In this document: positions 25,101-54,778 of the stretch, one piece after another
How positions within the stretch are numbered: the first letter of the stretch is position 1
Layout: every line of letters starts with the position of its first letter
Source of the DNA: a virus
Virus record (IMG/VR): IMGVR_UViG_3300042887_003609
Coordinates: 1 to 64,000 of that record
DNA: 64,000 bases
Reading direction: 5' to 3' (one strand)
Program-made: the position numbers and the translations under genes
The notes under the pieces: generated by a model
What the model saw: the letters and a program-made list of their open reading frames with translations, nothing else
What the model was told of the DNA's origin: nothing
Databases searched by the model: none

Positions 25101-28100
25101 TTAGTTATTTCCAATTTAAAATCAATACCTCCATCTGCAGTTTTATTTAAAGCAAAAAATAATTCATCTTTTATTCTATTATTTATAGACAGGTTAGCAT
25201 CTGCTTTATTTATTTCTGCTGGTTTACCATCTTCATCATAAATAACATTTTCTTTTCTAAGTCTATTAGCTTCTTTAATTATATCATTAAATAAGTCTGT
25301 AGTATCTTTAGCAGTTGCCTTACCTGGTCTAAGTTCTATAAACTTATATGTACCATTTGGTATTTTAACTACTAATACATATCTACCTAATGTTTTTGTA
25401 GCATCTTCATAATAAGAAAGACCTTTGTCTTTAACTTGTGTATTAATAGCTTTTCTTATTTCTTCAGCTTCTTGAGGTGTTACATTTTTAGTAATAATTT
25501 TTTCAACTTTAGTTTTAGTTTCTGGATTCTCAAATCTGTCAATTAAATAAATACCATTTTTATTATTTACATATTTGTATTTAAGATCACTAAAATTAGT
25601 AACATTACCACCTGTTAAATACTTATAAGAACCTACGCCTACTTTTGCATAAATATCAGATACAGAATCATACGGTATAACTGTTTCAGGTTTATTTTTA
25701 GATCTAGTTATTAACTCATTTATAAATGCAGAATAAGCGCTAAAAGATTTTTGAAAACCGTCAACAGTTTTTAAACTTTCTATATTAGTAAAAAATATAG
25801 ATTTGTATAGATCACTTGTCATTTGATTAACAGTGATTTCTTTACCTTCTTCATTATAAAATTTAAATGAATTTGGGTTTCTTAAATATCCTACAGTTAC
25901 ACCATTAATCTGTACACCAATTTCATATTCTTCAGACTGATATGCTATTCTATTATTTTTAACACCTTCCTGATTAGTTACAAAATAATTTAATACTGGG
26001 TTAGTAACTTTATTTTTTCTTACAACAAATTTTATTTTAGAAAGTAATTCATCTTTTGGAGTTGTTATTAATAAAGACTCAAACTCAGATTTTAATTCAG
26101 GGTTTTTAGTCCATACTGAATTATAAACCGTAAAAACTTCATTAGGAGAAGCTTTGGGTAAAAGTTCTAAACTAGATGGAGATTCTCCTTTTAAATAAAA
26201 ACCATCTAATGTTTTTACTTTAAAGTAATTACCCACGGGTCTTCCTTTTTCTAGTTTAATTAATAAGAAAGTACCGTCTTTTTCAATGTTAGCTAACTGA
26301 TAAGTTACAGGTTTATTGTCAGTATCTCTTTTTTCAAGAATATCATTTATCTTAAACTTCTTATCTTGTGTAAATACATCTTTTCCTTTTTTAGGTTCAG
26401 TTACTAATAAAGTTTGTTTGTCTCTTAAATCAGTTAATAAAGTACTAATATCTTTTTCTACTATAGGTCTTATCTGTGTAGTATCTTTATCTATAACCAT
26501 TATAGCATTACCTTCTTTATTAAGGAAAGTATAACCTACTGAAGCACCTGCTTTATTTTTTAATTCTACAAATCTTAATTTATTTATAAGATTCAATAAA
26601 CCAGGATTATTAATAATAAGCTTAAGATCATCTTCAGAAAGTTGAGCATCTACAAAAGATACAGTTTCCGGTAATGGAACACCCACGGTTGTTTCTGAAG
26701 TTTCAGTTTCTACAGGTTTATATATATTAACTACGTCTTGTAATTCTAAACCATAGTCAGAAACTAATTTTGCAACTCTAGGATCTTGACCAAAATATTC
26801 AGAAGTTACATACTTTAAAATAAGATCAGGTTTATTCTTTATTATAAGACTATCAGTAGAAGATATAGGCATTACAACATATGACCCAGACTTAGTTGAT
26901 GATAAAAGATTTTTAAATGCATTCATAAAAGCATTTAATCTTTGAATTTGCTCATTACCATCTACATACTGTTGTATTGTAGCACCACCTTTTTGCTCAT
27001 CACTTAATTGAGCAAAACTATTTTCAGCAAACTCTTTAACCTTTACATCTAATTCATCATAAGAGACATTCTTAAATGTAATTGGTTTTTTAGATTGAGA
27101 TTTTTTAGTTGGAGGCTCTTGATTTTTTTTTCTTGCTTCTTCTTCTTTTGCAGCTTGCTCTTTAGTTAAATTATCAAAATCTAAAATTAATCTTTCTACT
27201 TCTTTAAATCTTGGATCTGATTTACTAAAAGTTCTTTGTGTTTTTTGATCAACAAATTTAACATCTGGATCAGTTAACAAAAAAGTTTTAAATGCTTCAT
27301 AACCTTTTGGAATATCTGTAGGTATAGTTGCTTTATCTATAATGAAATTATTATCATCAAGATAGTTTATAAGTTCATTTGTTTTAGCATCTGAAAGAAA
27401 CTCTTTAAAGCTTTCTTTCATAAAGTCAGCTCTTTTTTCTTCAAATGCTTTTCTTGCTTTTATTCTTCTATTTACTTCATTGTAAAATCCTACTGGATCA
27501 GTAAGACTATTTACTGCTTCTGTAAATCTACCTAAATCTTTATTAAGAGCTAAGTAATCTATAAAGTAAGTATATGCTTTTTCAAGATCTGCTTTAATAA
27601 AAGTTTTATTATTATTTTCAGCAAGTTGATTCATGTACTTTACAAAAGCATCTTTAATCCATCTTGCTTTTTCTAATTCAGTTTTATCTTCAATAGACTC
27701 TATCTTCTCAAAATGTTTTTTAAACTGTTCTAAAGCTTTTAGTTTTTTAGATTTATTTTCAGTTTGTTTTTTAAGAGCTGGATCAGTTACATCTTTTGAA
27801 GTTTCAATTTCTTGAGATAAGATATCTATTTCAGTCTGAAGATCTGTAACACTTAATAAAGGTAATACATCACTAAAGGCTATATCACCAAGATTACTAA
27901 TCTCTGTAATATTATTACTTAAATCTTGTAAACGTTTAGAAACTAAATCTATATTATGTAAACTAAAAGTAGCAATCTTTCTAGCATCTTCAAATCCTTG
28001 ATAACCAATTCTTTCTGTTTGAAATTGTTTAAAAGATTCAGGATCTTTTATAGATTCTAAAGTATATTTATTTGGATTAAAAGGATTTTTATATTCAGAA

Positions 28101-30193: not shown

Positions 30194-32869
30194 TTAGTTA
30201 TAATTATCTAGTCCAAAAAGCATTGAGTTAAACGTAGCTAAATCAATAGGGTTTTGTGGTATGTATTGTAAAGTTCTAGTTTTAGTATCTATTATAGTTC
30301 CAGATGGAACTACCATCCCATCATCTTGCATTTTAAATGTAATGTCTGCTTGAATCTTTGGATTATAATATTGATACTGACCTGTGCTTTTTAAAATTAC
30401 TTCTCTATTATTTACAGAAGTATTTTGATTTAAGTAAGTATTACTTATAGTCTGTTTTGGAATTACTACTGTAATACCTTGAGAAATAACTTTATTATAT
30501 TCTTCCTCTTCTATAGCTTTAGAATCTAATAAAGCTTTTAATGTTTTATCATCTGCTGAAGGTCTTATATGAAGTGTTCCATATTTTTTTGATCCTAAAC
30601 CTAATGGTGAATATGAATATGCTACAGGATTTTTATTAACTCTCATATTAACTCTTAAGTTATTAACATATCCTTGCATTACGTCAGATGCTTTTATATC
30701 TTCAAAATCATCTTCTGATTCACTTCTTACAGTTTCAGGAGAACCTAATGCAACTTTAGAACCTGCTAAACTAGAAGTAATATCATATAATGCAAGAGTT
30801 TGCTTTGACTTATTTCTTTTTGGATCTGCAACACCACTAATTACATAATCAGTAGTTATACCACCTCCACCGCCAAGACCTATACCTCCGGCAGGAACAT
30901 AAGATTTATTTTGAATAGCATAGTTTATATACTTTTCATCAAAGTCTTCTTTTTGATCATCATATAAACTTTCAAAATATTGTTTAGCTGTTGTTTTAGA
31001 ACCAAACATTCGTTTAAATCCTTCTATTTCTGCAGATGCAAAACCAGATAACATTCTTTGTTCTAATCCTTTAGTACCATACTTTGATACATATTCATTA
31101 TAAGCAGCAGTTTTGTTTCTTAATCTTCCATTTTTATCAAACATAGAAGATAATAAAACTTTATCAAATTCATCAGTAGCTTTATCTGCTAATAGATTAT
31201 TAACTACAGCCTTATTATTTTTTGCAATTGTTACATCAGTAGCATCCATCATTTGTCTTGCATCGTTTGCATTTTTTAATGGTGTGCTAATAGCTGAATT
31301 TAATTCAGGATATCTTGTAAACAAATCAGAAATTTTACCGTGAATTGCTCTAAGTTTATTAGTAGATAAAACACCTGATTGTAAATCAGCAAGCTTTACA
31401 TTTTCAGACTGTAACATTTTATTTACAGCACTTTTAATATTTGGATCATTTATATTTAAAGCACCTGTTACTATAGAATTAACGGCACCAGAATAATTTT
31501 TCCAGGATTGATTATAAACCTCTCTATCTTCTTTAAGAACATTAATATCCTGACCAGCTTGAGTAGTAGTGGCTTGTGGAATAAATTCATCATAGTCACC
31601 TCCTTCTAATTCTTTTTTATATTTTTCAAGTTTAAGATCATAATTAAAGTCAAGCTCTTTTTCCATTTGAGTATAAGACCAATCTACTTTCTTTTTCCAA
31701 TTGTACATTTCAAACTCATCTGGTTTTTGTGATATCTGATAATCTTTATATGCTTGAATATTTGAAGCTTGTACAAGATTATCAGATATAAAACTTGATG
31801 CCTGAGATTGAATAGCTGCATTTTCTAAAATAGATAAATCATTATTATTATATGCATCTCTAATTACTCTAATTCTTTCATTTGTACTTTCAAGATTTTC
31901 AGAATAAACATTTTTTTGTTTTGTTAACTGCTGGTATTCTAATTGTTCTTTAGTAGAAAGCTTTCCACCATTTGATAATCTTGCATTATAAATATCAATT
32001 TTAGATTCTACATCATCTAAACTTTTTTGAATAAGTAATGTTTTTGCTGCATCATTATTTAATAAATCATTTGCAATAGTTGGAAAATATTCTGCTTTTG
32101 CTTGATTAATATCTCCATTATATTTTGTATTTGCTAATGGTAAAACATCATTCATTACATTAACATATGCTTGAGTTTGAGCATATTTTTTTACACGAGG
32201 ATCAACTCCAAGAGTTGAAGATAATTGTTGTAATATTACATTAAAAGCTTTTGGTCCATTTTTAGTAGTTACCATATAACCACCAGACTTTTCATCAATT
32301 GATATGTTAGTAAACTTTTCACCCAATATTTTTTCAGCTTCAGTAAATATATTTACATATGGAACATATTCCGGTGCAGAAACCTTTCTTGCATTTTCAT
32401 CATCACTACTTTGAAATTCTTTTAATTTGTAGTTAATAGCTTGCATTGATACATCTGAGTATTTTCCTTTACAATCATCAGATAAACAATTTTTATAACT
32501 TTCTCCTTCACTTAAAGCCTGTTTAGCTTTTTTAGTGTACATCATGTCATATACAATATTGTTATCCTCATAAAAAGGTTTAAAAACATTGCTAGCCAAT
32601 TGTACATTTTGTGGAAGAGATAAATCAAGTGATGATATTTTTTTAATATTATCTTCTGCAGCTTTTAAAAATTCTGCTCTTCTTTGTTGATTAACAGGTC
32701 TAGTCAAATCTGAATTAAGAATTGAACTATACACATCATTTACCTGACTAAATCCTGCGTTATATTGACTCTGCTTATATTGCAAAGCATTCATCAAAAA
32801 GTCATAGTCAGGTTTAAATGGCTGGATATCCGGAAAGGTATCTGTTATATTAGGAATATAGGTTGCCAT
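30194..32869 (-). CDS. Virion cargo/ejection protein
   Basis: Helical 891-aa protein in the crAss-like cargo block upstream of the RNAP. Confidence 0.65.
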   Translation of the reverse strand: MATYIPNITDTFPDIQPFKPDYDFLMNALQYKQSQYNAGFSQVNDVYSSILNSDLTRPVNQQRRAEFLKAAEDNIKKISSLDLSLPQNVQLASNVFKPFYEDNNIVYDMMYTKKAKQALSEGESYKNCLSDDCKGKYSDVSMQAINYKLKEFQSSDDENARKVSAPEYVPYVNIFTEAEKILGEKFTNISIDEKSGGYMVTTKNGPKAFNVILQQLSSTLGVDPRVKKYAQTQAYVNVMNDVLPLANTKYNGDINQAKAEYFPTIANDLLNNDAAKTLLIQKSLDDVESKIDIYNARLSNGGKLSTKEQLEYQQLTKQKNVYSENLESTNERIRVIRDAYNNNDLSILENAAIQSQASSFISDNLVQASNIQAYKDYQISQKPDEFEMYNWKKKVDWSYTQMEKELDFNYDLKLEKYKKELEGGDYDEFIPQATTTQAGQDINVLKEDREVYNQSWKNYSGAVNSIVTGALNINDPNIKSAVNKMLQSENVKLADLQSGVLSTNKLRAIHGKISDLFTRYPELNSAISTPLKNANDARQMMDATDVTIAKNNKAVVNNLLADKATDEFDKVLLSSMFDKNGRLRNKTAAYNEYVSKYGTKGLEQRMLSGFASAEIEGFKRMFGSKTTAKQYFESLYDDQKEDFDEKYINYAIQNKSYVPAGGIGLGGGGGITTDYVISGVADPKRNKSKQTLALYDITSSLAGSKVALGSPETVRSESEDDFEDIKASDVMQGYVNNLRVNMRVNKNPVAYSYSPLGLGSKKYGTLHIRPSADDKTLKALLDSKAIEEEEYNKVISQGITVVIPKQTISNTYLNQNTSVNNREVILKSTGQYQYYNPKIQADITFKMQDDGMVVPSGTIIDTKTRTLQYIPQNPIDLATFNSMLFGLDNYN

Positions 32870-32921: not shown

Positions 32922-35612
32922 TTACCTTCTATTTCTAAGATTCATAAAGTCTCTTAAAAAATCATTTCTTGAATCAGATTTATTACTTGAACCAGATCCA
33001 TTAAATCTTTTAATTAATTCTTTATCTATATCTTCTTTAGAAAGATTAGGAAAGTTTTCAGCATAGAATTTTCTTAAACTTTCTATACTTGGTTGTGATT
33101 GTTGTGATGAGCCAGATAAACTTCTTTGATTAGGAACAAATGAAAGTCCTCCACCAATAGCAGGATTTATGGCAAATTCAGGATACAAAGTATTTAATAC
33201 TTGAGTCATTGCATTATTTGTAATTGCATTAGTAGCTTGCTGATTAATTTCAGCATTTGCAGTGCGTTTAGCATTATCATACTGTTGATTAGCAATAACT
33301 GTTTTATCATAGTAATTTGATTTAGCTAAAGCATTCTTCATATTGAAATCATTAATCAATGCTTTATTAGACTGTTCAAATTGATTAGCTACACCTACAT
33401 TAAGATTGTTATATCTACCAAGTATATCAGCTGCACCTTTTAAACCAGATCCTTGAATCTGAGAAGCTCTAGAACTTAATGCTTGAGGGCCTGCAAACTG
33501 TCCTAAGTTTTGAGTAACTAAATTTGCCATTTCAGCATTTGCAGCTAACTCTCTACTTGGATCATAGAATGTAGGATCCATTAACATTGGTTGAGGCATA
33601 GCAACATCATAAGGCATGTATTTATTTATACCTAATCTGTTACCTAATGCTAATCCTAAATTCATTAAATCTTGAGGATAAACTCCAGCAGATGGTCTTG
33701 CTACATTAGCAGCAACCAATGGATCTTGAGTATATGAACCAACTTCATCTTGTTTTGTTGGGGCAACATCTACTTTCTTTTTAGGTACATTAAATAATAC
33801 TCTTGTTTCAAAAAACTTACCAGCTTTTTCATCTAATGCATTAGGAACACCACTTGTTTTTGTAGGATCAAAACCAATTTTATTTAAAAAACCTTTAGCT
33901 TCTTGAGGTGAATAACCTGCATTTATAAATCTATTAAACATTTCAGAATTATACATTCTCATAGCTTTTCCTACTTGAGATGGATCTGACCAATTAATAG
34001 GTCCATACCATGACCAGTTCTGACTTGCTTGTTCAGGATTAAATCTACCAAAAGTACCTTGCTTTGTTGTAGTCTGTAATTTTTCAAAACCTTCTTGAGG
34101 TACATTAAGACTTGGATCTAAAGTATTTAAAATCTTTACTAACTCTGGATCATATGTACTATATTCAAATGTTTGACCATTTTGTGCTTTACCCATAGAT
34201 ACTTGAGCATCTTGTGGAGTCATTACATCTGGCATAAACATAGAAGGATCCATTCCTACTTTCTGCATATAAGGCATAGAGATAGATGGTGGTCCTTGTG
34301 GAAATCCTTTACGTGCTTCTTGTACTAAAGCAAGTTTACCCAACTGTGAAAGATTGTTATCATACATTCTTTTAGCAGTTGATCTAGCAATAATATCTGC
34401 AGTAGGATCATTTAATGTTTTTTGAATATCCGGATTATTAAGATTAAACTTCTTTGATATTTTAGCAGGAGTATAACCACCTTTCTTATAAGACATACCA
34501 AAAGATTCTAATATTGCGGGATCTTTAATCTTCATGTCTTTTGTATCAGAGAATATAAAATCACCACCACCGGCTTGAAGTGGAGTACCACCTTCACTGT
34601 GACGTTTACCACCAATCTTATACATATTAAGAATACCATTATCAGATGGCTTAACAATTGTTTCACCAGCTTCAGCTTCAATGTTAGCTATCTCTCTTGG
34701 TACTTCTTCTGCATACTGTCTTACAGAACTTTCATCTTCACCTCCTAACATATTACTATATTTAGATCTTCTTACATTAGAATTGTAAGGATACATTTCA
34801 TCTACAGCTTGTGTATTTTGAGTACCTCCATAAGCTTCTTTGGGTAACCCTGTGATTTTAATTTTTCTTTTCATTTGTCCACCGTATTGTGCAATTTTAC
34901 CAAACTGTCCGTAAACAGCTTCATCAGGTCTAAAGTTAAGACCTGTACCATAATTTAATGTATAATCTCCTCTATTACCAGAATAACCTTCAGGTATAGA
35001 AGCATATAAAGAGTCAGATAAAAATCTATTTCTAAATTGATCTTCAGCTCTATTCTGTTCTCTTTTCTTACCCATGTTTGCAAATATTCCAGTTTGTATT
35101 AAAGGAACCATCCCTGCAATTTGAGTTAGCTTAGATAAATCACCTAAAGATTTATCAGAATTACTTACCGGAGCATAGCCTGGTGCATATGCGGCATCTT
35201 CTGTAAATACAGTTCCTTCAGGAGAAGCTGTATATTGTTCTGCTACATTAGCATAATAGTTACTTGATGTAAGAGGTCCATAAGGCTCATTGAACATATC
35301 TACATCATCTACTAAAGGAGTTACAGAAGGTGCAACTCTAGACATGCTAAAGTTAGGAGCACCAAAAACACTAGCTGAATCAAATGGCTTTGTCATTACA
35401 GGATTTTCTGTAGAGAATGGTACCATTCCCTGTGTACTACTAGGTGTAGTATTTGTACTTCCTTTTGTTACATCTCCATAAAAACCAAACATATTTTGAT
35501 TTGCTTTCCATATATCTTGTTGCTGAGGAGTTAACACAATAGGAGGTTTTCCTGCAAATTGCGCTTTAGGTAAAGATTTAATTCTGACTTTCTTTTTCAT
35601 GTTTTTAATCAA
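32922..35612 (-). CDS. Virion cargo protein
   Basis: NIEAEAGE...GKRHSEGG...FIFSD domain recalled from crAss-like cargo proteins; Q/N/A-rich C-terminus; AQYGG and EAYGG motifs. Confidence 0.65.
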   Translation of the reverse strand: MIKNMKKKVRIKSLPKAQFAGKPPIVLTPQQQDIWKANQNMFGFYGDVTKGSTNTTPSSTQGMVPFSTENPVMTKPFDSASVFGAPNFSMSRVAPSVTPLVDDVDMFNEPYGPLTSSNYYANVAEQYTASPEGTVFTEDAAYAPGYAPVSNSDKSLGDLSKLTQIAGMVPLIQTGIFANMGKKREQNRAEDQFRNRFLSDSLYASIPEGYSGNRGDYTLNYGTGLNFRPDEAVYGQFGKIAQYGGQMKRKIKITGLPKEAYGGTQNTQAVDEMYPYNSNVRRSKYSNMLGGEDESSVRQYAEEVPREIANIEAEAGETIVKPSDNGILNMYKIGGKRHSEGGTPLQAGGGDFIFSDTKDMKIKDPAILESFGMSYKKGGYTPAKISKKFNLNNPDIQKTLNDPTADIIARSTAKRMYDNNLSQLGKLALVQEARKGFPQGPPSISMPYMQKVGMDPSMFMPDVMTPQDAQVSMGKAQNGQTFEYSTYDPELVKILNTLDPSLNVPQEGFEKLQTTTKQGTFGRFNPEQASQNWSWYGPINWSDPSQVGKAMRMYNSEMFNRFINAGYSPQEAKGFLNKIGFDPTKTSGVPNALDEKAGKFFETRVLFNVPKKKVDVAPTKQDEVGSYTQDPLVAANVARPSAGVYPQDLMNLGLALGNRLGINKYMPYDVAMPQPMLMDPTFYDPSRELAANAEMANLVTQNLGQFAGPQALSSRASQIQGSGLKGAADILGRYNNLNVGVANQFEQSNKALINDFNMKNALAKSNYYDKTVIANQQYDNAKRTANAEINQQATNAITNNAMTQVLNTLYPEFAINPAIGGGLSFVPNQRSLSGSSQQSQPSIESLRKFYAENFPNLSKEDIDKELIKRFNGSGSSNKSDSRNDFLRDFMNLRNRR

Positions 35613-37287
35613 TATATTCTACACCATATCCCATGTCCATTAGACGTTGGATTTCTGATTCATCTAATTCCATAGTATCTCCCATACCTATTTGACCACC
35701 TTCTTGCTTTGCAAAGTTTCTTGCAAAGTTAGCTTTTTTTCTCATTTCAGGAGAATACTTACCTTTAGGAGCATTCAATATAGTTTTAGCTGCTTCTTGT
35801 ACACCCATACCCATTCTAGTTGCTTGAGCTTTAAATGTACCTTTCTTAGCAGGATCAATATAAATACCACCTTTTTTCATTTGAAACTGACTCTCTTGAA
35901 TAGCTTTCATAATTTGCTCAAGAGCTTTTTGCTGTTCTTCAGGAGGCATGCTTTGAAGTTGTTTCATAATTTCACCAGGATCAGTTTGTGTCATTTGAGC
36001 ATACATCTGGATAGCTTGCATAATTTGTTCTTGCTGTTGACCACCATCCTGATACATACCACCTTTCATCATTTGATACATGCTTTCCATATCTCCACCA
36101 TAAGCCATATTGCTCATGATTTTATTTTGTACATAATCTGGTAAAGCTTGGAATCCAGGATTTTGTGGCTCGCCACCTTCAGCCCAAGTTCCAAAACGTT
36201 TATGCCAGTATAATGGACTAAATGGATCTGTAGCTTTAGCAGAATCTTTTCCTCCCATTCTACTCCAGAATTTATCTTTACGTTTTTCTGAACCATGTTG
36301 AGAGAAATCTTTCATACCTTTATATCCACCGTGTACTACTTTATACTTATCACCTTTCTTAGCAAGCACCATCCATTTTTTACCTGGACGGGTTGATTGT
36401 CTTTTAACACCAACTTTAGTGAAACCTTTATTCTTATAACGCTGAGGAATACCACCTTTGGCCATTTGTTCCATCTCACCCATGTTATAATCTTCCTCTT
36501 CTTCTACTTCAATATCTCTTCCATTATCTTCTGAGTACATTAGGTAATCACTAATAGAATCAATATAATCATCAGCCATTGTAATTTTACTAGATACCCA
36601 AGGTTCAAGATCACTATCTCCACCAATAAACTGACGAAGCTTTTCAGCTTTTTCCATAATAGACATAAGTTGACCTAAAGCCATTTCACCATCAGGTTCT
36701 CCGCCATCATCCATTCTTTTAACCATACCTCCACATTCATAACATGGTTGACCACCTCTTGCATAACCATAACTATCCATCATAGATTGATTACCTGCAG
36801 CTTTAAATCTTTTTTCTGCTAACCATTGAGGCATCTTACCACCTTCAGCCATAAGCATAGGTAACATTTGCATGGCAAAACTTGCCATACCTTGATTACT
36901 TGAACCTGAAGATTGCTGATTAGGATTCATTGGAATCATAGTAGGAACCATAGAGTTTGCATAATCTAAAACATTCTGACCATACTCCTGAATATTAGCA
37001 TCAGGATTCATCTCCATTCCATTTTGAGCTTTACGGTATCCACCACCTCTACTCTTATAGGTCTTAACTAACCATGCTGAACCATAAGCAGAAGGCCATC
37101 TATCAAATTTTTGTTTTGCTTCTGATTTTACTCTAGAGTATAGCTGTGGATTAGTTGGTACATTACCACCTTTTTTCATTTGTCTAGCTTCAGGATATGC
37201 CTGGAAGAATGCTTCTTCCGAAGGAAACATATTGTAGAACTCTTCTTCAGTTTCTACACCAGCTATTTTTAAGAATTTATCTTTCAT
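35605..37287 (-). CDS. Met/Gln-rich multi-domain protein with 11 Phi-x-x-GG motifs (putative internal polyprotein)
   Basis: MKKGG, MAEGG, YARGG, MDDGG, MAKGG, WAEGG, MAYGG, MMKGG, YQDGG, MKKGG, KQEGG separate small domains. Confidence 0.7.
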   Translation of the reverse strand: MKDKFLKIAGVETEEEFYNMFPSEEAFFQAYPEARQMKKGGNVPTNPQLYSRVKSEAKQKFDRWPSAYGSAWLVKTYKSRGGGYRKAQNGMEMNPDANIQEYGQNVLDYANSMVPTMIPMNPNQQSSGSSNQGMASFAMQMLPMLMAEGGKMPQWLAEKRFKAAGNQSMMDSYGYARGGQPCYECGGMVKRMDDGGEPDGEMALGQLMSIMEKAEKLRQFIGGDSDLEPWVSSKITMADDYIDSISDYLMYSEDNGRDIEVEEEEDYNMGEMEQMAKGGIPQRYKNKGFTKVGVKRQSTRPGKKWMVLAKKGDKYKVVHGGYKGMKDFSQHGSEKRKDKFWSRMGGKDSAKATDPFSPLYWHKRFGTWAEGGEPQNPGFQALPDYVQNKIMSNMAYGGDMESMYQMMKGGMYQDGGQQQEQIMQAIQMYAQMTQTDPGEIMKQLQSMPPEEQQKALEQIMKAIQESQFQMKKGGIYIDPAKKGTFKAQATRMGMGVQEAAKTILNAPKGKYSPEMRKKANFARNFAKQEGGQIGMGDTMELDESEIQRLMDMGYGVEYID

Positions 37288-37288
37288 A

Positions 37289-40087
37289 TTATTTATATTT
37301 TTTTAACCAGTTAGTTTGTCCACCATCTTTCTTTTTATAAACAGGAATACCTTGTTTATTTTTTTCATAGTAGAATCTATCATAAACTTCATAAGGTTTT
37401 TTAAACCCATAAACTAAATCAGTAATTAAAGGTCCAAAGTCATATACATCATATAATGATATGTACTTACCTTTTTCATCCTCGCCTTTATCCAAAGTAA
37501 AATTTTGCAAAGGATCTTGTTGACTAAATGCTACACCAGAGGCTTCTAAATTTTTTCTACCTTTAATATAAGGATCTAATGAGGGTATTAATACTTTTGT
37601 TTCACCAGGCTTTAATTCTTTTTGTGCTTTTACGTAAGCATTAATAAGCTTTTGAGGATCATACATATTCTCAAATCTTACATATTCTGTATCATTGTCT
37701 TCTGAATTAGCAGGTTTATAACTAGCAGGCTTAATATATTTGAAGTCATCTTTAAAACCTAATCCTTTTCTCCATGCTTCTTCAGAAGGAGATAAGTTAC
37801 CCTTTTTATCTTTTAAAGGTTCAACAGAAGGATTATTTAATTTTATTATTGCATCTAATACATCAGGATATTCAATAGGTCTATACTTATCAAATACTTC
37901 ATCTTTAAAATAGTTTAAACCTGTACCCAAAACTTTAGTTGTAAATCTTAATCCTGGATGATATTTTATAAAATTTTTAGCAAGCCATTTACCACCATCA
38001 AACAAAGTATTAGCAAAAGTTTTAACGCCAGGACTTGTAGCTGCTATTTTAATTTCTTGCATCCTATCTGGATTCTGCTCAGTTGATGTTTCACCACCTT
38101 CTTGATATTGATTTAACCATCCACCATATTTTTTACCTGGAGTATATTCAGATATAGGTGATCTATTGTAGTGAATTAAATATTCTCCGTTATCAAACTT
38201 TTTAGGATCTATCCCCATTCTTTCTGCCATAATGTTTTTTAAATTAGCAGATGAGTCATTTACATACTCTCCCATTTGTCTTCCAGAATTAATCATTTCT
38301 TGATCTATAGGAAAATATCCAGCTAAATTAAATTTAGATGGATCTTGAATAACAAATGTTTTCCTACCCCCATAATAATAATCCGGTCTATTTGTTGGTA
38401 GCCCCGCTTGTGCTAGTCTACTTGCATAAATAGATTCAGGTATTTTTGAAGCAAAATTATCATCAGTTTCTGTTGTTTTAATGTTTTTATTATTTCTATC
38501 ATATTTAGATCTATACTTATTAGACAGATCTAAATTGTGAAGTTTTGCCCACTCTCTTATTTCAGGATTGTTTAACATTTCAACCCTGGTTTGTTCTGCG
38601 CGATTCCAAATTTGATCAGGTCTATTTGCAGTATAATCATCAACCATCTCAATATTGTATCCTTGAGTTGCTAGTGCTTCATCAAATCTTTGATTAAGAT
38701 TGGACATTCCACTTTCAACTTGTTGTTTTTTATCATAACCTACACTTTGATCATAGTCTACAAGGGAACTTTTATCTCCCTTTAAAATATAAGCGTATGT
38801 TTCTGGAGAGTTTAAGAAATAGTTTCCAGGATTTTGATTTAAATTGGTTGTCCATATTCTATTTGGACCGTATCCATCATCAATGGTGTTTCCTTTATTA
38901 AGTGGTAAATTCCCAAAAGATCTTCCGACCATCTGTGGAAGAATGTAATCTTGTTCTAAAGATGTTTGAAAATTAGAAGCTGGTAAATTAATTCTATCGC
39001 CAGAAGTTAGTCTATTATCAATAGGATAATAAGAAGCAGCTACATTAACTAATTCTTCTAGCGTAGGATTTAATAAATTTACAGGAATATTAGGTTGAAA
39101 GGTAGTTTCTCCTTTAGTAGAACCCTTTGCTATTTCAGGATATATAGTAAGTGAGGGATTGTAAACTAAATTACCTTCCGTATCATACATATATCTATTA
39201 CTATCGCTTATCTTTTTTCTTTTAACTCTAATGTCAACAGGAGCTATTCTTGTAGGATTTTGTTCAGTTGATGTTTCTCCACCCTTTTGATAATTATCTA
39301 ACCAACCCCCGTACTTCTTTTTTTCTACCTCATCTTGTACAGTATCTGCTGCATTTATTATTTGTTGCCAAGGTAAATACTTATAAACAGCTTTCATTGC
39401 ATCTGGATCAGCCAAATACTTTAGTTTACCTAATTTACCTAATGCTGGTACAGCACCAAACATATCCATTCCTTGCTCAAAACTTGGTAAGGTTGATCCT
39501 GATTTTTTCCATTTTTGATATGCTCTTCTAGCATCATCATGTGATGTATATCCAGTAGGATCAAAAAATTCTACTATGTTTTCTGCAGTAGAGTCAGGCA
39601 TTGCATCATCCCATTCTTGAGTAGTATACCATTGTCCACCTTGTTGCTTACGCTTATGATTATAATCTATACGCTTACCAGAAGTCTTTTCTCTTTTAAA
39701 CTTTGCTTTTTCAGCAGAAGACATTTCAGATGTAGTTTTAGGAGTAGTTTCATTTACTCTCTTCTTTGGTCTACATGCAGGATATGGTCTACCATCTTTG
39801 TCCTTACCAGATCTGCCACAAGGTTTACCAGTTTTAATATCTGTCCACTCTTCAGCAAACCATTGTGTTAAACCACCTTTACCCATCTGTGGTATTTCTG
39901 TAACATAATCACCGGGAAATGTATAATCCATTCCTGGCATCATAAGTTCTTGATTACCAAGGTTATCAATACCTAATACAGGATAGTTAACACCCTGCAT
40001 GGTTATATTATTAGAAGGTATAATAGTAACTTCACCGGGATATTCCCACTGACCAAATGGAGTTACTATAGGTTTCTTTTTACCCAT
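37289..40087 (-). CDS. Modular cargo protein with GG-delimited cassettes
   Basis: MGKGG, KQQGG, two copies of KKYGGWL-x-x-YQ-x-GGETSTEQNP, terminal KKDGG. Confidence 0.7.
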   Translation of the reverse strand: MGKKKPIVTPFGQWEYPGEVTIIPSNNITMQGVNYPVLGIDNLGNQELMMPGMDYTFPGDYVTEIPQMGKGGLTQWFAEEWTDIKTGKPCGRSGKDKDGRPYPACRPKKRVNETTPKTTSEMSSAEKAKFKREKTSGKRIDYNHKRKQQGGQWYTTQEWDDAMPDSTAENIVEFFDPTGYTSHDDARRAYQKWKKSGSTLPSFEQGMDMFGAVPALGKLGKLKYLADPDAMKAVYKYLPWQQIINAADTVQDEVEKKKYGGWLDNYQKGGETSTEQNPTRIAPVDIRVKRKKISDSNRYMYDTEGNLVYNPSLTIYPEIAKGSTKGETTFQPNIPVNLLNPTLEELVNVAASYYPIDNRLTSGDRINLPASNFQTSLEQDYILPQMVGRSFGNLPLNKGNTIDDGYGPNRIWTTNLNQNPGNYFLNSPETYAYILKGDKSSLVDYDQSVGYDKKQQVESGMSNLNQRFDEALATQGYNIEMVDDYTANRPDQIWNRAEQTRVEMLNNPEIREWAKLHNLDLSNKYRSKYDRNNKNIKTTETDDNFASKIPESIYASRLAQAGLPTNRPDYYYGGRKTFVIQDPSKFNLAGYFPIDQEMINSGRQMGEYVNDSSANLKNIMAERMGIDPKKFDNGEYLIHYNRSPISEYTPGKKYGGWLNQYQEGGETSTEQNPDRMQEIKIAATSPGVKTFANTLFDGGKWLAKNFIKYHPGLRFTTKVLGTGLNYFKDEVFDKYRPIEYPDVLDAIIKLNNPSVEPLKDKKGNLSPSEEAWRKGLGFKDDFKYIKPASYKPANSEDNDTEYVRFENMYDPQKLINAYVKAQKELKPGETKVLIPSLDPYIKGRKNLEASGVAFSQQDPLQNFTLDKGEDEKGKYISLYDVYDFGPLITDLVYGFKKPYEVYDRFYYEKNKQGIPVYKKKDGGQTNWLKKYK
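38068..39320 (-). repeat. Direct repeat pair of about 65 bp (approx. 38068-38135 and 39253-39320) encoding KKYGGWLxxYQxGGETSTEQNP
   Basis: Shared core TCAGTTGATGTTTC-N-CCACC in both copies. Confidence 0.85.
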
Positions 40088-43000
40088 TATCTAAATGACT
40101 TTAACAACTTATTATTTGCTACTTTAAATAGTAATTTAGAAGACCCTGAAAATAGTTTTCTAAGAAGAACTCTATTTACATAATGCCTAAATTTCTTTCT
40201 TTCAGTAGCCCCCTTATTATAATTTACATAACTTGAGTTAATATTCCTAATGTAACCATTGGATTCTACTAACCACATAGGTATAGGATTATTTCTATCA
40301 GCAGTAATATCCCAGAATTGATTGAATCTATATTTCTGTTCTACTTTAGAATATAGAATATCAATGTTAGTAGCATTAACTTGTGGATAATTAAGTATCT
40401 GATATGGTGATGTTGGGGTTAAATTAAGTTTTAAAGTACCAGACATTTGTTCTGTATTATAAATAACAGCTTCGTCAAAGTTTTGGGTAAGCTGATGATA
40501 CTTATTATTACAAGTTTCATCATATGTATAACACTCTAAAGCATACTCTACAGATCTAGTAGTTGTAACTTCCTGTCCTTGATTTTGTACATATTCAATT
40601 TCAAAAGGATATGGAACTCCATAGTAGTTACAGAATAAATCACATCTATCATTATGTTTCCAGATTTGATTATTTAAAATAGTTAGAAACTTAGACTTAC
40701 TTCCTAAAGTTAAATTAGGATGCCAGTCATGGAATGATATCCAGGCTTTAGCTTTTAAATCATATGATACAGTCCAAGAGGCATTTTCAAAATAGGTAGG
40801 ATTACCAAGTAAAACTGTTCCGCCATTTACTAAGTTTATAAACTTTCCGTCCTTATCATAAATTAGTTTATTCTTAAACTGGGGTTTAAGTTTGAAATCT
40901 CTTTTTAAAACATATACAATTTCATTATCATTGTCATAAACACTTTGACAACCTACTCCAACAATTGTATTATCTAGTAGATCAAAGTCTTGAAAATCAT
41001 TTAGAATTTGGTATTGTAAAAACTCATTAAACCACCACTTCATTCCGGTTTTGGATATGTCATTAAGACCAACTCCAAAACTAAATACTTTACCCTGGTT
41101 AGCTGAAATATAGAATACTCCACCTGGTGTATTTAAAACTGATAATCTACTTTGACAAGAACCATATTCTATTTCACTATCTACAGAAATAATATTTTGT
41201 AGAGGTTGACCGGTAAATAAACCACCGTCTCCTATAGTAAGTTTAGTTCCTGAGTTTAAATCTATTTGCTCAGTTCCTTGCATTAATATAGGACTTTGAC
41301 TTTCAAGCATTATTATAGCTCCTGTTCTACCAACAGGTTTCATAGCAATAACTCTACTTGAGAAATCATAATAGTTATTAGCAAGGAATTGTTTCCAGTT
41401 ATCTTTAAGTAATTCTTTTTGTTGTGGTAAAGAATATATTACCCTTTTTGGATAATAAATGTAACATTCTTCTGCTATACTTGGATCATAAGATCTTGCT
41501 TGCAAATTACCCCAAGATATAAAAGATGAATAATGCTTAACTAAACTTAATGAATAATCATATTTGTAGTAGTTTATATCCCGTATAACGTTAGGATCGA
41601 ATAAAGACTCATAATCAGTATAAGTATAAAAATCATAATGTCTTTTACCCCTGTCTTCTTCATAATCTCTTAAAGCTAAATTAATTTCTGATTCAACATA
41701 AAAATCTCTTATTCCAGAATTAAACAAATACATGTAAGCATTCTTAAGTATAAGTAATCCTGAAACTTTTTGTCTATCTAAATGAGAAAAATCATTTGGT
41801 AAAGTACTAGCAGAAAAACCTCCTAGTACACCTGATATAAAGTTAGTAGAATCAAACTTAGTAGTATTCATCCAATATCTAGGATAAGGAAGCATATTAT
41901 AAAGTCTATAATCATACTCAGTCCCATCAGGAAGATTTTCCATCCATTTTGAGAAATAAAAGAACGTATTCTTTTCAGTATATCTATTAATGTAAACATC
42001 CCCTCCAAAAATTACATCCGTTCTATCTTTTTGATTATATCCTCTATTCCAGAGTTGAATACATCCAACCGGTATTTGTTTGATTTGTTCAAGTTGTCCA
42101 TATTGATTATCAATTGCAACTTTTAAAGCTGCATACTTTGTTACAGAAGTAGATGTCTGTGAGTAATCCCAAGGTCTAGCATAAACATCTCTTTCACTAG
42201 CATCTACGGGTCTTACTCTACCATTCTCATTTTTTGCAATATTCTTTACTGTAAATAAAGTATTATCTCTTGTATCTCTATTAAGAGTAGTGTTGGTAGA
42301 AACTACAACTGTTTTTGCTCTTAAAATATTATTAATCGTATAGTCTTCAGTATAGTCTTGACTAGCTGATTGTAAATAAACAGACTTATCTAAACTACGT
42401 CTTCTTTGACCAATAGGACTATACTCAAAATTAGAATAAAAACCATGTGATACATACTGTAATGCATACTGTTGATATTTAGAAAAAGACTTGATTCCTT
42501 CCATAATATTATCAGTAGCTTGTACATAGAAGTATGTAAATAAAACACTCTTATAGGTTAATGTTAAAGCTAAACCTCCAACTAAAGCCAAAATTCCAGC
42601 ATCAGTAAAACCTGTTGAAGCACTTAGTGAACTTGATAAAGCAGTATATTTTGCTAGTAATTCTAGTTGAGCTAATGGACCACCATCTGCAGCATCTGCT
42701 GCTGTTCTTCCAATAGCTACTCCAGCAACTGAAGAAAGAAAGAAAAGTACATCTGTAGCTAATTTATTCTTAGAATGATTATCTATTTCTTTAAATCTTC
42801 CGGTTACTGCTCCAGTTAATGTACCATACACTTTTAATTCACTAGCAGATAAGAAAGGATTACGAAAATTAGTTTCAGGTGAATGGAATGAAAATATATC
42901 ATCTTTAACACCATCAAAAAGTATTACATCATCATTACCTGTAGAACTATCAAATAAATCATTATCTCTATAAGCACCACCACGGGTTTGAGTATAAGTC

Positions 43001-44832
43001 TTATTATTGTTTACTAGTTCTTTATCTCTTCCTAAGAATGGATCATAACCTGTATAGTTATAAGGATAGTTTACATACAATCCGGTTTTATTAGAAACAT
43101 CATTTGGAATATCATATTCTCTCATGTTGTTTATAATACCTTTTGCTAATATAGATCTATGACCTTCTCTTGAACCTCTTAAGATTTCATAACCTACTAT
43201 ATTAGTAATTGGGTTACCTTGGTTATCAACTGGAAACTCAATATTTTCAAATTCAACACCCAAGATTACAATTGTATTATCTGCAGGATCATAGTTTCTA
43301 ACTGTAGCTAAAGGACTTCTATTATCTCCATAGATTGCATCTTCTGGAAATTTATGATGTCTGATTGCTTTACCACAAAGTTCACCCCATACATCTGCTT
43401 TATTATCAGGATATCTTTCTGTAGATTCCCAATAACCCATATCACCAGATAAAACAACAGTACCTCCATCTTGTAATACAGAACTTGCATAAGATGTAAT
43501 AGAAGCTGTTGATTCTACTTTCCATCTTTGTAAAGATATATCATTACCGGCATCCGGTCCATTAACTAAAAATGTATCAGATGTTTTAGAAGATCTTCCA
43601 GGAATATGATAAGAAGCTGATTTCTCTCCTGTATTATATATCCATCTTATAAAGAATGAATATACTTCATCTCTCATAAAAGATGTTTTATTTCCACTCT
43701 TATAATAATACTCAGAAGAATATTTTACAGCTACCCACTTAGCTTTTATTTTATTAGCTTTTACTTGGTAATTAAAATCAAGACTTGTAGTTGGACCAAC
43801 TCTTACTAAATAGTTGTTCACTTTAAACATAGCGTCTGATTTTTCATACACTGGAGTTCTTAAAGGAATTAATTCAATAGGAACTGAAGGTAATGCATTA
43901 TCAATAAGATCTAAAGATACTTTATTAATATTAGTGCTATATACACCTATACTCTTTGCTACAGTCTGTTGATTAATAAAACTTATAATAACTAACTCAA
44001 ATTCATCATAGTCAGAATCTAAATTATCAAAATAAATATCTAAAGAACCTGAAAGATTTTCATGTGTCCACAATGGTTGCACATTAGATATAGTAATATA
44101 ATCAGTTACCTTAATACTATTAACTGTATATGCAATAGTTGCTTGATAAGATCCATTAGGTAATGAACCTAAACCCAATCCTTTTTCTACAGTTATACAA
44201 GGTACACTTGTTAATGTAGCCAATCTTAATGCGTCACAATCAATATCATTAGTAGGGATTGTAACATCACAATCAGGGTTATTATTATTACTATCAGCTG
44301 GAGCTGGTACTTGTGTATATGGTACACCCGGCCATTTACCAAAAACATTTAAGTTAGGCCAACTATCAGGATTACCAATATTTAAAGTTCTAGATGGATT
44401 TAAACCATCATCCCAATACAATTGCATTGAGCAATCAGCATTACCTTTTGATACACCAATGATAGGTTTAACTTTAGAAAAGTTTAACTTACATGTACTA
44501 AGTGAATCATTTACTATAGTATAGTAACTACATGTATCTTCTATAAACAATCCTATCTCAGAAGGTAATCCATCTTGAATAGTATGATTGTTTGTACTAT
44601 ATATAGCCCATCTACCTGCACTAATATATACCGAACCAATTATTTGATATGGTGCTTGAGTACAAAGTATATTACCTTGTTCATTACCAATAACACCTAT
44701 ATCACCAGAATCAGAATTATTAACAACATTTCTAGCATGTGTCCATTGTCCTTCTGAGATATAAATATCATTAATATCTTTATATAGACCTTTGTTAAAA
44801 ACTTCGGTATGTACTGTACTAGTGTTTTGCAT
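40087..44832 (-). CDS. Tail stabilization/muzzle protein (crAss-like)
   Basis: 1581 aa beta-rich; RDEVYSF, WTVSYD and WISFHDW patterns; follows tail ring genes. Confidence 0.75.
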   Translation of the reverse strand: MQNTSTVHTEVFNKGLYKDINDIYISEGQWTHARNVVNNSDSGDIGVIGNEQGNILCTQAPYQIIGSVYISAGRWAIYSTNNHTIQDGLPSEIGLFIEDTCSYYTIVNDSLSTCKLNFSKVKPIIGVSKGNADCSMQLYWDDGLNPSRTLNIGNPDSWPNLNVFGKWPGVPYTQVPAPADSNNNNPDCDVTIPTNDIDCDALRLATLTSVPCITVEKGLGLGSLPNGSYQATIAYTVNSIKVTDYITISNVQPLWTHENLSGSLDIYFDNLDSDYDEFELVIISFINQQTVAKSIGVYSTNINKVSLDLIDNALPSVPIELIPLRTPVYEKSDAMFKVNNYLVRVGPTTSLDFNYQVKANKIKAKWVAVKYSSEYYYKSGNKTSFMRDEVYSFFIRWIYNTGEKSASYHIPGRSSKTSDTFLVNGPDAGNDISLQRWKVESTASITSYASSVLQDGGTVVLSGDMGYWESTERYPDNKADVWGELCGKAIRHHKFPEDAIYGDNRSPLATVRNYDPADNTIVILGVEFENIEFPVDNQGNPITNIVGYEILRGSREGHRSILAKGIINNMREYDIPNDVSNKTGLYVNYPYNYTGYDPFLGRDKELVNNNKTYTQTRGGAYRDNDLFDSSTGNDDVILFDGVKDDIFSFHSPETNFRNPFLSASELKVYGTLTGAVTGRFKEIDNHSKNKLATDVLFFLSSVAGVAIGRTAADAADGGPLAQLELLAKYTALSSSLSASTGFTDAGILALVGGLALTLTYKSVLFTYFYVQATDNIMEGIKSFSKYQQYALQYVSHGFYSNFEYSPIGQRRRSLDKSVYLQSASQDYTEDYTINNILRAKTVVVSTNTTLNRDTRDNTLFTVKNIAKNENGRVRPVDASERDVYARPWDYSQTSTSVTKYAALKVAIDNQYGQLEQIKQIPVGCIQLWNRGYNQKDRTDVIFGGDVYINRYTEKNTFFYFSKWMENLPDGTEYDYRLYNMLPYPRYWMNTTKFDSTNFISGVLGGFSASTLPNDFSHLDRQKVSGLLILKNAYMYLFNSGIRDFYVESEINLALRDYEEDRGKRHYDFYTYTDYESLFDPNVIRDINYYKYDYSLSLVKHYSSFISWGNLQARSYDPSIAEECYIYYPKRVIYSLPQQKELLKDNWKQFLANNYYDFSSRVIAMKPVGRTGAIIMLESQSPILMQGTEQIDLNSGTKLTIGDGGLFTGQPLQNIISVDSEIEYGSCQSRLSVLNTPGGVFYISANQGKVFSFGVGLNDISKTGMKWWFNEFLQYQILNDFQDFDLLDNTIVGVGCQSVYDNDNEIVYVLKRDFKLKPQFKNKLIYDKDGKFINLVNGGTVLLGNPTYFENASWTVSYDLKAKAWISFHDWHPNLTLGSKSKFLTILNNQIWKHNDRCDLFCNYYGVPYPFEIEYVQNQGQEVTTTRSVEYALECYTYDETCNNKYHQLTQNFDEAVIYNTEQMSGTLKLNLTPTSPYQILNYPQVNATNIDILYSKVEQKYRFNQFWDITADRNNPIPMWLVESNGYIRNINSSYVNYNKGATERKKFRHYVNRVLLRKLFSGSSKLLFKVANNKLLKSFR

Positions 44833-52215: not shown

Positions 52216-52416
52216 TTATTTCAGTCTGATGTATTTATACCATACTCGTTCATGTATATAGTATAATACCATTTTGGTAATTAGTTCTACCCCACCAATT
52301 TTTAATCCGGTAGACATGTTACCTGTAATAATATACCCTAAGAGAATAGTATCAATTGTGCCTACTATTCTCCAGGTAATTGTTTTTAATATATGTCTTA
52401 GTTTGTCACTACTCAT
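52216..52416 (-). CDS. DUF2061-like small membrane protein
   Basis: RHILKTITWRIVGTIDT...ELITKMVLYYIHERVW signature. Confidence 0.88.
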   Translation of the reverse strand: MSSDKLRHILKTITWRIVGTIDTILLGYIITGNMSTGLKIGGVELITKMVLYYIHERVWYKYIRLK

Positions 52417-52760
52417 AAACCCATTTCTTTACGAATTTTTGTAGCAGATATTTCCTTAATATGATCAGGTACTTCTATTTGTTCTACCTTGTATCCTACA
52501 TCTCTTCCATAGTACACACCTTCAATATCCGGAATAATCATTACTTTAACCTTATCTTCAGATATATAAGATTTAAGACTATCTTCAATCATTGCTTTAA
52601 CTTGTTCTGCAGTGAATGGATTTTTTTCATCAGTAGGTACATCTCTAATTGCAATTAGAACCGGAAGTTTTTTTTCTTCTAATAGAGTATCTACAAGATA
52701 CTTATGACCCCCATGAAAGATTTGGTATCTACCAATCATTAAACTATATTTATTCTTCAT
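52413..52760 (-). CDS. Small HxGH nucleotidyltransferase, putative minimal ATP sulfurylase
   Basis: GRYQIFHGGH, NPF, YGRDVGY, ISATKIR; co-operonic with APS kinase. Confidence 0.7.
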   Translation of the reverse strand: MKNKYSLMIGRYQIFHGGHKYLVDTLLEEKKLPVLIAIRDVPTDEKNPFTAEQVKAMIEDSLKSYISEDKVKVMIIPDIEGVYYGRDVGYKVEQIEVPDHIKEISATKIRKEMGL

Positions 52761-53511
52761 AATGCTTTTTATAAACCTTTGTACAAATATCTATAAATTC
52801 TTCTTGAGTAAAAACATTTTTCATGATATTTATTTTTTTATGCACCCATTGTAAATTACCAATACTGTAACCTTGATCTGAATTGATTCTGTCAAGAGAA
52901 GCGTTACCAACACCAAATTTATTTTTAGTAACATTGCTAAATACTAAATCCATTCCAGACAAGGCGCATTTTTTATTTTGATTTAAATAAAGCTCTTCTA
53001 AATACTCAATATCAATATCAAAAATAATGTTTCTACTTAAAGCTCCTCTTTTTATTGCTGTAAAAAAAGTTAAAGCTATATGTTCAGTACCTTTCCAATT
53101 TTTGTGAAAATTTCGTTTAGCGTGATGAATACAACCACAAGAAGTAGTATCACCTATTCTTAATGCTTTAGTACTAACTACTTTATCACTTCCACAATCA
53201 CATTTACAATACCAAGCTTTTCTACCATTTCTAGATAACGTTTGAGAAATAACTGTTAGTTTTCCAAATTTTTGATTTATTAAATTTACATTATTCACAA
53301 CTAAACATCCACAACTTGCATATTTACTATTTAATAAATAATTTCTACTTACATACTTTTCATTTCCACAATCACATTTACATTTAATAAGAGTAATATT
53401 ACTAACTTTTCCAGTTTTAGATGTTTGTTTACTACTTTTAAAATCATCTAAAACTAAAAGATTCCCAAATTTCTTACCAACAATTGACTTATCAAATGGA
53501 CGGTTTTTCAT
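52750..53511 (-). mobile_element. Free-standing HNH-type homing endonuclease
   Basis: Two KFGxLxV...CKCDCG...SCGC repeats; C-terminal CALSG...ASLDRINSDQGY...NLQWV...NIMK. Confidence 0.85.
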
Positions 53512-54777: not shown

Positions 54778-54778
54778 A

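Follow-up and report, generated by a model that had tools for sequence, protein, structure and literature searches.

Genes and Features of the Cargo Block

The window analyzed here covers the initial 64 kb of one viral contig of 74,484 bp (IMG/VR record IMGVR_UViG_3300042887_003609) with a GC content of ~29% and an estimated completeness of 61%, and its source is an uncultured crAss-like phage. Its minus strand carries, in this order, the gene of the muzzle protein and genes encoding 932, 560, 896, 891, 4683 and 2175 aa. The subject of this work is the 560-aa open reading frame (ORF) at positions 35605-37287, which encodes a protein of 63.2 kDa with an isoelectric point of 6.5, in which 8.9% of the residues are Met. 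The protein is built from small modules that are bordered by a recurrent peptide ending in Gly-Gly (GG), referred to as the seam, and it is likely to be packaged in the virion and injected.

The muzzle gene on one side and two giant ORFs (4683 and 2175 aa; putative polymerases) on the other enclose the block in which the 560-aa ORF sits. In crAss001 the muzzle gene (gp44) is followed by the cargo genes gp45 (C1) and gp46 (C2) and then by gp47, gp49 and gp50, the genes of the virion RNA polymerase; gp44-gp47, gp49 and gp50 were detected in particles, and the cargo proteins by mass spectrometry and cryo-electron microscopy (PMC10172136). Comparison by hhalign of the 896-aa family with an alignment of gut C1 proteins gave a match over nearly the full length (probability 79.7%, E 1.5e-5), which makes the 896-aa gene the likely C1 ortholog, although a simple hidden Markov model of this family did not match gp45. 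The 891-aa gene occupies the C2 position and showed no homology to gp46 that hhalign could detect. As the 896-aa gene is the likely C1 and the 891-aa gene is C2-positioned, the 932-aa and 560-aa genes represent two extra genes within the cargo block. Gene order was listed for 45 of 78 related IMG/VR viral contigs (36-127 kb), and the order muzzle, 932-aa type, 560-aa type, C1-like, C2-position gene was kept in most of these 45.

Modular Structure of the 560-aa Protein

The 560-aa protein contains 17 GG dipeptides at 16 sites, where 6.9 would be expected given its glycine content. The motif [MYWF]-x-x-GG was found 11 times, compared with a mean of 1.28 in 300 shuffled sequences, none of which reached 11. 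In the rest of the genome the motif was enriched only in the 932-aa neighbor (4 vs 0.89 shuffled); the F-[IV]-GGG motifs that are frequent in Gly-rich, fiber-like proteins (48368-52147 and 56108-60898) were excluded from this analysis, as they belong to a different repeat. The segments between the motifs differ in composition, with net charges of +6 (aa 42-83), -17 (aa 197-279), +17 (aa 280-372) and +8 (aa 475-531), and with a Gln-rich segment at aa 417-474.

The AlphaFold2 model, based on an alignment of 62 sequences, had a mean predicted local distance difference test (pLDDT) score of 56.7 and showed confident mini-domains at aa 1-35, 42-87, 269-320, 417-471 and 479-526. Most GG sites fell into segments with a pLDDT below 50, typically 1-3 residues past the end of a predicted helix; those at aa 81-83, 320-321 and 345-346 lie within modules and not at borders. 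Searches of the PDB with the sequence (phmmer) or with the family profile gave no match at E up to 1, gp45 included, and Foldseek against the PDB returned nothing significant. The modules, seams and neighboring genes are listed in Table 1.

Table 1. Positions (in the window) of the modules and seams of the 560-aa protein and of the adjacent genes.
Feature	Position	Strand	Description
N-terminal leader, aa 1-41	37165..37287	-	Acidic, conserved; ends in seam MKKGG
Basic module, aa 42-83	37039..37164	-	N-terminal half of Pfam DUF5872 (NVPTNP...WPSAY...YKSRGGG)
Linker, aa 84-196	36700..37038	-	Low-complexity Met/Asn/Gln, then tandem mini-units MAEGG, YARGG, PCYECGG, MDDGG
Acidic helical module, aa 197-279	36451..36699	-	Net charge -17, Glu run; ends in seam MAKGG
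Basic module, aa 280-372	36172..36450	-	Net charge +17, Pfam DUF5754 (KKWMV...VHGG...SPLYW); ends in seam WAEGG
Linker, aa 373-416	36040..36171	-	EPQNPGFQALP...MAYGG, MMKGG, YQDGG; main insertion hot spot in homologs
Gln-rich helical hairpin, aa 417-474	35866..36039	-	pLDDT 87-92; ends in seam MKKGG
Basic three-helix module, aa 475-531	35695..35865	-	Net charge +8; IYIDPAKKGTF...NFARNFAKQEGG
C-terminal tail, aa 532-560	35608..35694	-	...MELDESEIQRLMDMGYGVEYID, followed by the stop codon; candidate incorporation or docking tag
[MYWF]-x-x-GG motifs 1-4	37165-37179, 36838-36852, 36751-36765, 36727-36741	-	
[MYWF]-x-x-GG motifs 5-8	36700-36714, 36451-36465, 36172-36186, 36094-36108	-	
[MYWF]-x-x-GG motifs 9-11	36058-36072, 36040-36054, 35866-35880	-	
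Muzzle protein gene (crassvirus)	40087..44832	-	PF25731 crAss_MUZ, E 1e-31
932-aa upstream neighbor	37289..40087	-	Seam grammar like that of the 560-aa ORF; C-terminal half of DUF5872
896-aa gene, likely ortholog of C1 (crAss001 gp45)	32922..35612	-	By hhalign and synteny
891-aa gene, C2 (gp46) position	30194..32869	-	By position only

Homologs of the 560-aa protein number at least 1000 and range from 476 to 923 aa. The leader is at least 90% identical in most of them and is missing where the ORF begins at the next module. This next module matches the N-terminal half of DUF5872 (PF19197, E 6.4e-9, aa 44-90); tblastn against phage records found aa 42-85 as a stand-alone 56-aa protein, gp70, in Roseobacter phage CRP-2, and BFVD holds proteins of 44-57 aa of the same type. 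The following linker has a pLDDT below 50 and is variable among homologs. It includes an 8-residue Cys-x-x-Cys unit, QPCYECGG (aa 180-187; 36727-36750), a possible metal or redox site; linkers of distant relatives contain this unit again, as MPCYECGG or MPCYMCGG.

The acidic module matches phrog_32745, and aa 189-257 were found by tblastn as part of a 708-aa multi-domain protein of cyanophage S-SM2. The DUF5754 module (PF19058, E 1.1e-6, aa 297-344) is predicted to form beta strands (pLDDT 64-82) and locally matches, though weakly, phrog_220 ('minor head protein and DNA pilot', E 7e-6). Directly after the MAYGG of the next linker, insertions of up to 322 alignment columns were present in 100 of 120 homologs.

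The basic three-helix module is 76% identical over 58 aa to the C1-like protein of Dulem virus 41. In tblastn searches aa 471-530 were found as stand-alone 72-75-aa genes beside the portal and capsid genes of the Suoliviridae cr10_1 and cr50_1, and, at internal positions, in the C1-like proteins of Dulem virus 41, cr108_1 and cr128_1; by visual alignment only, aa 475-531 resemble aa 375-424 of crAss001 gp45. When the module alone was searched against 1.84 billion representative sequences, 1564 matches were obtained, in proteins of 67 to 2293 aa and at any position of the chain.

The C-terminal tail, ...DEIxxLIxxGYxIEYLD, is a candidate incorporation or docking tag, one per polypeptide. Among the ORFs of related loci, a regular expression for the tail gave 28 matches, each of them ending no more than one residue from the stop codon; the expression misses the tail of the 560-aa ORF itself, the conservation of which was established by blastp and alignments. 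The matches were on ORFs of the 560-aa type, on fused ORFs and, in some phages, on another ORF that follows. Some proteins that start with the basic module (representatives P0149, P0172, P0188) have a leader (K)IRNKxTGEIxEI[ST]DxELxxY..GG, which is similar to a permuted version of the C-terminal tail motif and bears a loose resemblance to double-glycine leader peptides.

Conservation of the Seams and Shuffling of the Modules

In the 78 related viral loci, GG was present within positions -6 to +2 of 155 out of 168 non-redundant internal module starts, a count that is neither a probability nor a set of independent observations, because the module instances are related by descent; random 9-residue windows of the same proteins contained GG in 12.4% of cases. 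The residue at -3 was Met, Tyr, Trp or Phe in 83% of these 155 seams, and in an alignment of 120 homologs the residue three before the first Gly was Met in 36%, Tyr in 17% and Trp in 6%. Copies of the basic module, taken from clusters of less than 50% identity, were directly preceded by GG in 127 of 140 cases. Seams were often arranged in tandem with spacers of 6-9 aa.

Large insertions relative to the 560-aa ORF were located at seams, namely after CGG 187, at WAE|GG 371, after AYGG 398 and near QEGG 530, and the inserted pieces in homologs themselves end in F-Q-E-GG, R-M-Y-GG and similar peptides. The order of the modules also differed between relatives. It is A5872, acidic, DUF5754, Gln, basic in the 560-aa ORF, A5872, basic, DUF5754 in three loci (L037, L039, L046) and DUF5754, A5872 in another (L038); the Gln module follows the basic module in P0003, P0037 and P0062, and one locus (L053) has a 270-aa ORF that consists of the Gln and basic modules only.

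The 932-aa and 560-aa types were fused into one ORF in five loci (L027, L032, L037, L046, L050). Where the genes are split, the first ends in ...YNHKR[KN] before the stop codon and the second starts with MA|NKPTNP or MSK|NIPTN; at the fused join the sequence reads ...YNHKRNEFGG-(about 20 aa)-MMAKGG|NVPTNP, which is a linker of two seams. Comparison of the split and fused forms thus places the gene ends within ~3 residues of seams. In a further locus (L067) the protein starts with MEYMKNGG|NTPTNP, and stand-alone basic-module proteins have a leader of 15-30 aa that ends in Y-K-[ND]-GG.

Two kinds of insert were conspicuous. One homolog (P0110) carries a YkuD L,D-transpeptidase (PF03734, E 1.3e-10) between two seams, inserted after aa 187; this fits an ejection protein, since cell-wall enzymes are typical of such proteins. 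In P0081 and P0097 an insertion of 311-312 aa splits WP|SAY, the motif that is best conserved in the DUF5872 half-domain (window positions 37093-37095). It looks intein-like, with a Cys right after RWP and ...TITGN before the Ser; Pfam does not recognize an intein in the 312-aa insert of P0097, and the identification was not retained.

The seam marks module borders across the family, and the modules are independent units. The same observation extends to crAss001 C1. No description of the seam was found in the literature searched, which included the papers on the crAss structure and on polyvalent proteins. The 11 motifs and the basic, acidic and Gln-rich segments had been noted in an original prediction made from the window alone, and they were borne out by the shuffled sequences, the charges and the AlphaFold2 model; most GG sites lie in low-pLDDT linkers, in keeping with its placement of the motifs at mini-domain borders, and three other GG sites lie inside modules. 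Two checks that it had proposed came out in its favor. Inter-motif segments were found as stand-alone proteins or families (CRP-2 gp70, the 72-75-aa proteins of cr10_1 and cr50_1, DUF5872, DUF5754), and the insertions, permutations, splits and fusions fell at seams, such that domain borders in homologs aligned with the motifs. In giant viruses DUF5754 and DUF5872 occur as separate genes (PMC12085832).

Neighboring Genes

The 932-aa gene contains positions 52-113 of the DUF5872 profile (PF19197, E 5e-11) and two near-identical linkers, KKYGGWLxxYQxGGETSTEQNP. The two halves of DUF5872 are found in adjacent genes, where their order is inverted: the 932-aa gene comes first and has profile positions 52-113, and the 560-aa gene has positions 1-47. 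In the fused relatives the C-terminal half also lies ahead of the N-terminal half, with ~20 aa between them.

For the 4683-aa ORF (16133-30184) no Pfam or PHROG match was obtained, and a DFDVD at residue 3580 was the sole hint of a virion RNA polymerase. A crass-type major capsid gene (phrog_11589) is located at the far end of the contig, and a complete relative of 127 kb with direct terminal repeats (G003) has Crass_capsid and CrAss_Ring_1/2. In that genome (L088-L094) one late protein weakly matches SAM_BAF, barrier-to-autointegration factor (E 4e-4), and one matches DUF5856.

The Gly-rich proteins at 48368-52147 (1259 aa) and 56108-60898 (1596 aa) contain 19-22% Gly and ~20-residue F-[IV]-GGG repeats and are probably fibers. 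A 240-aa relative adjoins the capsid gene (genome positions 71552-72274) and shares with the 1259-aa protein the N-terminal motif FxPxSPDxxxxQxDxL..KxGHLNxLVDxIN. The region between the fiber genes (52413-55654) is occupied by a small operon with kinase/cytidyltransferase-like, HNH endonuclease and ATPase-like PHROG matches.

Search for Proteases and Evidence on Seam Cleavage

Protease profiles were searched in the genome of the window and in four complete relatives (roughly 100% complete). C39 (PF03412; control positive in 7 genomes), C48 (PF02902; control positive), S78 (PF04586) and MPTase-PolyVal (PF18818) were not found in these five genomes, and neither was an adenain-like protease (PF00770), the latter being a weak test as its control was positive nowhere. 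A Pfam scan of G003 covered 118 of 124 called ORFs, leaving out five ORFs above 1200 aa and one of 405 aa, and for a second scan 25 of 39 families were listed; among the families listed there was no peptidase except the fiber chaperone S74. These scans also listed no prohead-type protease, with S77, S49 and ClpP not searched by name. The HExxH 'peptidase' encoded beside the stand-alone module in Suoliviridae (cr10_1) had no homolog here. A 433-aa gene after the portal gene of G003 was considered as a protease and rejected, as it has no HExxH.

The published structures that include crAss001 gp45 (PDB 7QOG, 7QOI, 7QOJ, 7QOL and 8CKB; Bayfield et al., 2023, PMC10172136) offer a view of GG sites in a packaged cargo protein. 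Aromatic-x-(x)-GG and similar sites of gp45 are SAYGG 209, AEGGG 263, KAFGG 332, AKDGG 373, AFGG 427 and FAYGG 562, and its ordered cryo-electron microscopy segments are aa 214-245, in the tail barrel, and aa 425-552, at the portal (PMC10172136). Residue 214 is four residues past the GG at 209-210, and residue 425 is just before that at 427-428. The portal-bound segment was modeled as one chain through the GG at 427, 434 and 447 (PMC10172136). The crAss001 papers, in the text and supplements consulted, yielded no peptide-level data.

Cleavage of the seams is thus not supported, and the indirect evidence leans against it. The original prediction had taken the gene for a polyprotein whose GG motif is a maturation-cleavage or capsid-targeting tag that releases many small cargo proteins. 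Of this, the independent small modules, motif-bounded also in homologs, and the role as cargo, in view of the crassvirus cargo block in which the gene lies, were retained. The cleavage site was not: the protease searches above turned up no candidate, the gp45 chain is unbroken through three GG, and the register differs from that of adenain and double-glycine leaders. A targeting tag fits the strictly C-terminal motif better than the GG motif itself.

Interpretation

With moderate confidence, we read the 560-aa protein as an injected modular cargo protein whose seams stay uncut and act as hinges or handles, and which has a single C-terminal tag. As an additional cargo (ejection) protein of a crAss-like podophage, it would be produced late, packaged in the particle and driven via the tail into the host, ahead of or together with the DNA. 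The chain would be a string of self-folding modules of 40-110 aa, three basic, one acidic and one Gln-rich, and the basic modules may bind nucleic acid. The seam, Met/Tyr/Trp/Phe-x-x-Gly-Gly, would bound each module and most likely remain uncut. It could insulate the modules from each other, provide hinges so that the small modules of the chain thread the narrow portal and the tail channel one after another, and offer repeated docking handles inside the particle. Seams are also where modules are swapped, duplicated, fused or split in evolution. The strictly C-terminal tail, present once per polypeptide, would carry the whole string into the particle.

Several points weigh against this reading. 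The proposed virion location derives from synteny and from modules in common with other phages. A passive linker would not need the degree of sequence specificity that the seam has. A pure hinge also fails to explain why the seam is kept before the basic module even in stand-alone 72-75-aa proteins and after short N-terminal leaders, and the 6-9-aa spacing of tandem seams likewise suggests something beyond a hinge. In gp45 the three uncut GG sites are part of a folded domain, so that they are perhaps not genuine seams, and the lack of a recognizable protease is still compatible with a novel or a host enzyme. The shared descent of the module instances also tempers the count of seams at module starts.

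The main rival reading, possible though doubtful, is that the protein is a true polyprotein and that a protease cuts at or next to Gly-Gly after procapsid loading or injection, freeing the modules. The enzyme would be an unrecognized phage enzyme or a conserved host enzyme of Bacteroidota, and the seam-ending leaders would be propeptides. The motif has a specificity like that of a protease site, with a hydrophobic residue at P5 or P3, which are on the same face of an extended chain, and an invariant GG. Modules that are separate genes in some phages are fused in others, with ends ~3 residues from a seam; stand-alone proteins keep the leader ending in Y-K-[ND]-GG, the protein of L067 starts with MEYMKNGG, and tandem seams could be redundant sites. 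Pieces of gp45 are seen on both sides of the portal (PMC10172136), which separate fragments would explain simply, and predicted and observed sizes of virion proteins mismatch in places (Shkoporov et al., PMC6235969).

Against a polyprotein stand the results of the protease searches, in which C39, C48, S78, adenain-like and MPTase-PolyVal enzymes were missing, S74 was the only peptidase listed and the HExxH 'peptidase' of Suoliviridae had no homolog (the PF00770 test being weak), together with the continuity of gp45 aa 425-552 through three GG sites. The register is unlike that of adenain (M/I/L-x-G-G) and of double-glycine leaders, which have the hydrophobic residue at -4, and equally conserved GG occur inside folded modules (VHGG, SRMGG). 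The wider form of this proposal, that Crassvirales cargo proteins including gp45 are genuine polyproteins and that the seam is the site of a phage or host maturation protease freeing a variable injected payload in the capsid or in the host, we consider unlikely. If the seams were cut, this would imply an unrecognized maturation protease and a re-reading of the crAss001 structure, with its cargo on both portal sides; it would mean a new system of virion maturation and payload delivery in the human gut's most abundant order of phages and in its marine relatives.

A seam without any function in the finished protein, as an evolutionary trace and tool, is rather improbable; it would then be a short shared sequence for the recombination of cassettes, retained since each cassette brings along its own end-piece. 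In favor of this, insertions, duplications and permutations all fall at seams, two linkers of the 932-aa gene are near-identical, and the modules also occur in unrelated phages and giant viruses. However, a 5-residue motif, mostly encoded by GGTGGT, is too short for homologous recombination, and the seam persists in stand-alone genes. Its conservation across clusters of less than 50% identity with varied flanks points to selection on the peptide.

Even less probable is a cytoplasmic, multi-domain late protein outside the virion, for instance a nucleic-acid-binding or assembly factor with flexible linkers. Such a protein would agree with the label 'transcriptional regulator' given to basic modules in some crAss records, and the packaging of the 560-aa protein is itself a deduction. 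This is countered by the conserved place of the gene in the cargo block, after the muzzle gene and before C1, by the module shared with the virion-proven gp45, by the match to phrog_220 and by the YkuD cell-wall enzyme inserted in one homolog. A Shine-Dalgarno-like pause or internal start at the seams was rejected, with GGTGGT in 9 of 17 cases and GGAGG in 2 of 17, below the codon-usage prediction, and with Tyr, Phe or Trp in place of Met at -3 in homologs.

Crassviruses are among the most abundant gut phages and are common in the oceans, and little is known of what they deliver along with their DNA. A grammar of small modules, one seam peptide and one terminal tag would allow the payload to be parsed from sequence in thousands of uncultured phages and would indicate where modules can be exchanged. 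It also provides testable hypotheses on how a podovirus particle takes up proteins and how these are threaded out. DUF5872, DUF5754 and the basic three-helix module, to which no function has been assigned, are widespread among phages and giant viruses.

Comparison With Known Systems

The closest known counterpart is C1 of crAss001, gp45. Its gene likewise lies just after the muzzle gene, its modules are bordered by seams and it has, by eye, the basic module. The 560-aa protein is not the C1 ortholog: it shares one module (aa 475-531) with C1-like proteins and has no full-length similarity to gp45 or gp46, and it contains neither the compact portal-bound domain nor a transmembrane-like segment or a TonB-box-like LDEVxV motif. 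Gut crassviruses, in turn, do not have the DUF5872 and DUF5754 modules or the C-terminal tail that the 560-aa protein carries. In cr108_1 the basic module and the portal-bound domain follow each other in the opposite order to that in crAss001 and cr128_1.

Polyvalent proteins combine many unrelated domains, are encoded in a virion-gene context, are predicted to be packaged and injected, and are shuffled; their processing into separate domains has been proposed (Iyer et al., 2017, PMC5512222). With at least five modules, a leader and a tail in a virion-gene context, the 560-aa protein resembles these proteins, which are defined by 2-15 domains. It does not have their hallmark domains (MuF, zincin-like MPTase, ART, anti-restriction), its Pfam matches being DUF5872 and DUF5754 only, and its modules have no known activity. 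No conserved seam peptide is described for polyvalent proteins, and the word 'linker' is absent from that text (PMC5512222).

The repeated GG after a hydrophobic residue, and basic, possibly DNA-associated parts as in adenovirus cores, recall precursors that undergo Gly-Gly-directed processing. Such processing is carried out by the adenovirus protease (M/I/L-x-G-G|x), pS273R of African swine fever virus and I7 of poxviruses, and is also known from C39 double-glycine leaders and polyubiquitin. The hydrophobic residue of the seam is at P5, or at P3 in gut crass C1, and that of adenain and double-glycine sites at P4, and the protease searches detected no enzyme of clan CE or of C39. The leader LSxxELxxIxGG of C39 systems is N-terminal, in contrast to seam motifs, which are internal, repeated and in another register.

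The internal proteins of T4 and the inner-body proteins of phiKZ and SPN3US have capsid-targeting propeptides that are cut by a prohead protease at L/I-x-E or S/A/G-x-E. The seam motif is unlike these sites, and Pfam scans detected no prohead protease, S77 not having been searched by name. The acidic module is also present in a T4-like cyanophage, in a protein whose gene is flanked by the genes annotated as gp16 (small terminase) and gp17 (large terminase). Like the 560-aa protein with its basic and acidic modules, the T4 and phiKZ systems are made of small basic and acidic proteins that are packed with the DNA and injected, as is proposed here for a single chain.

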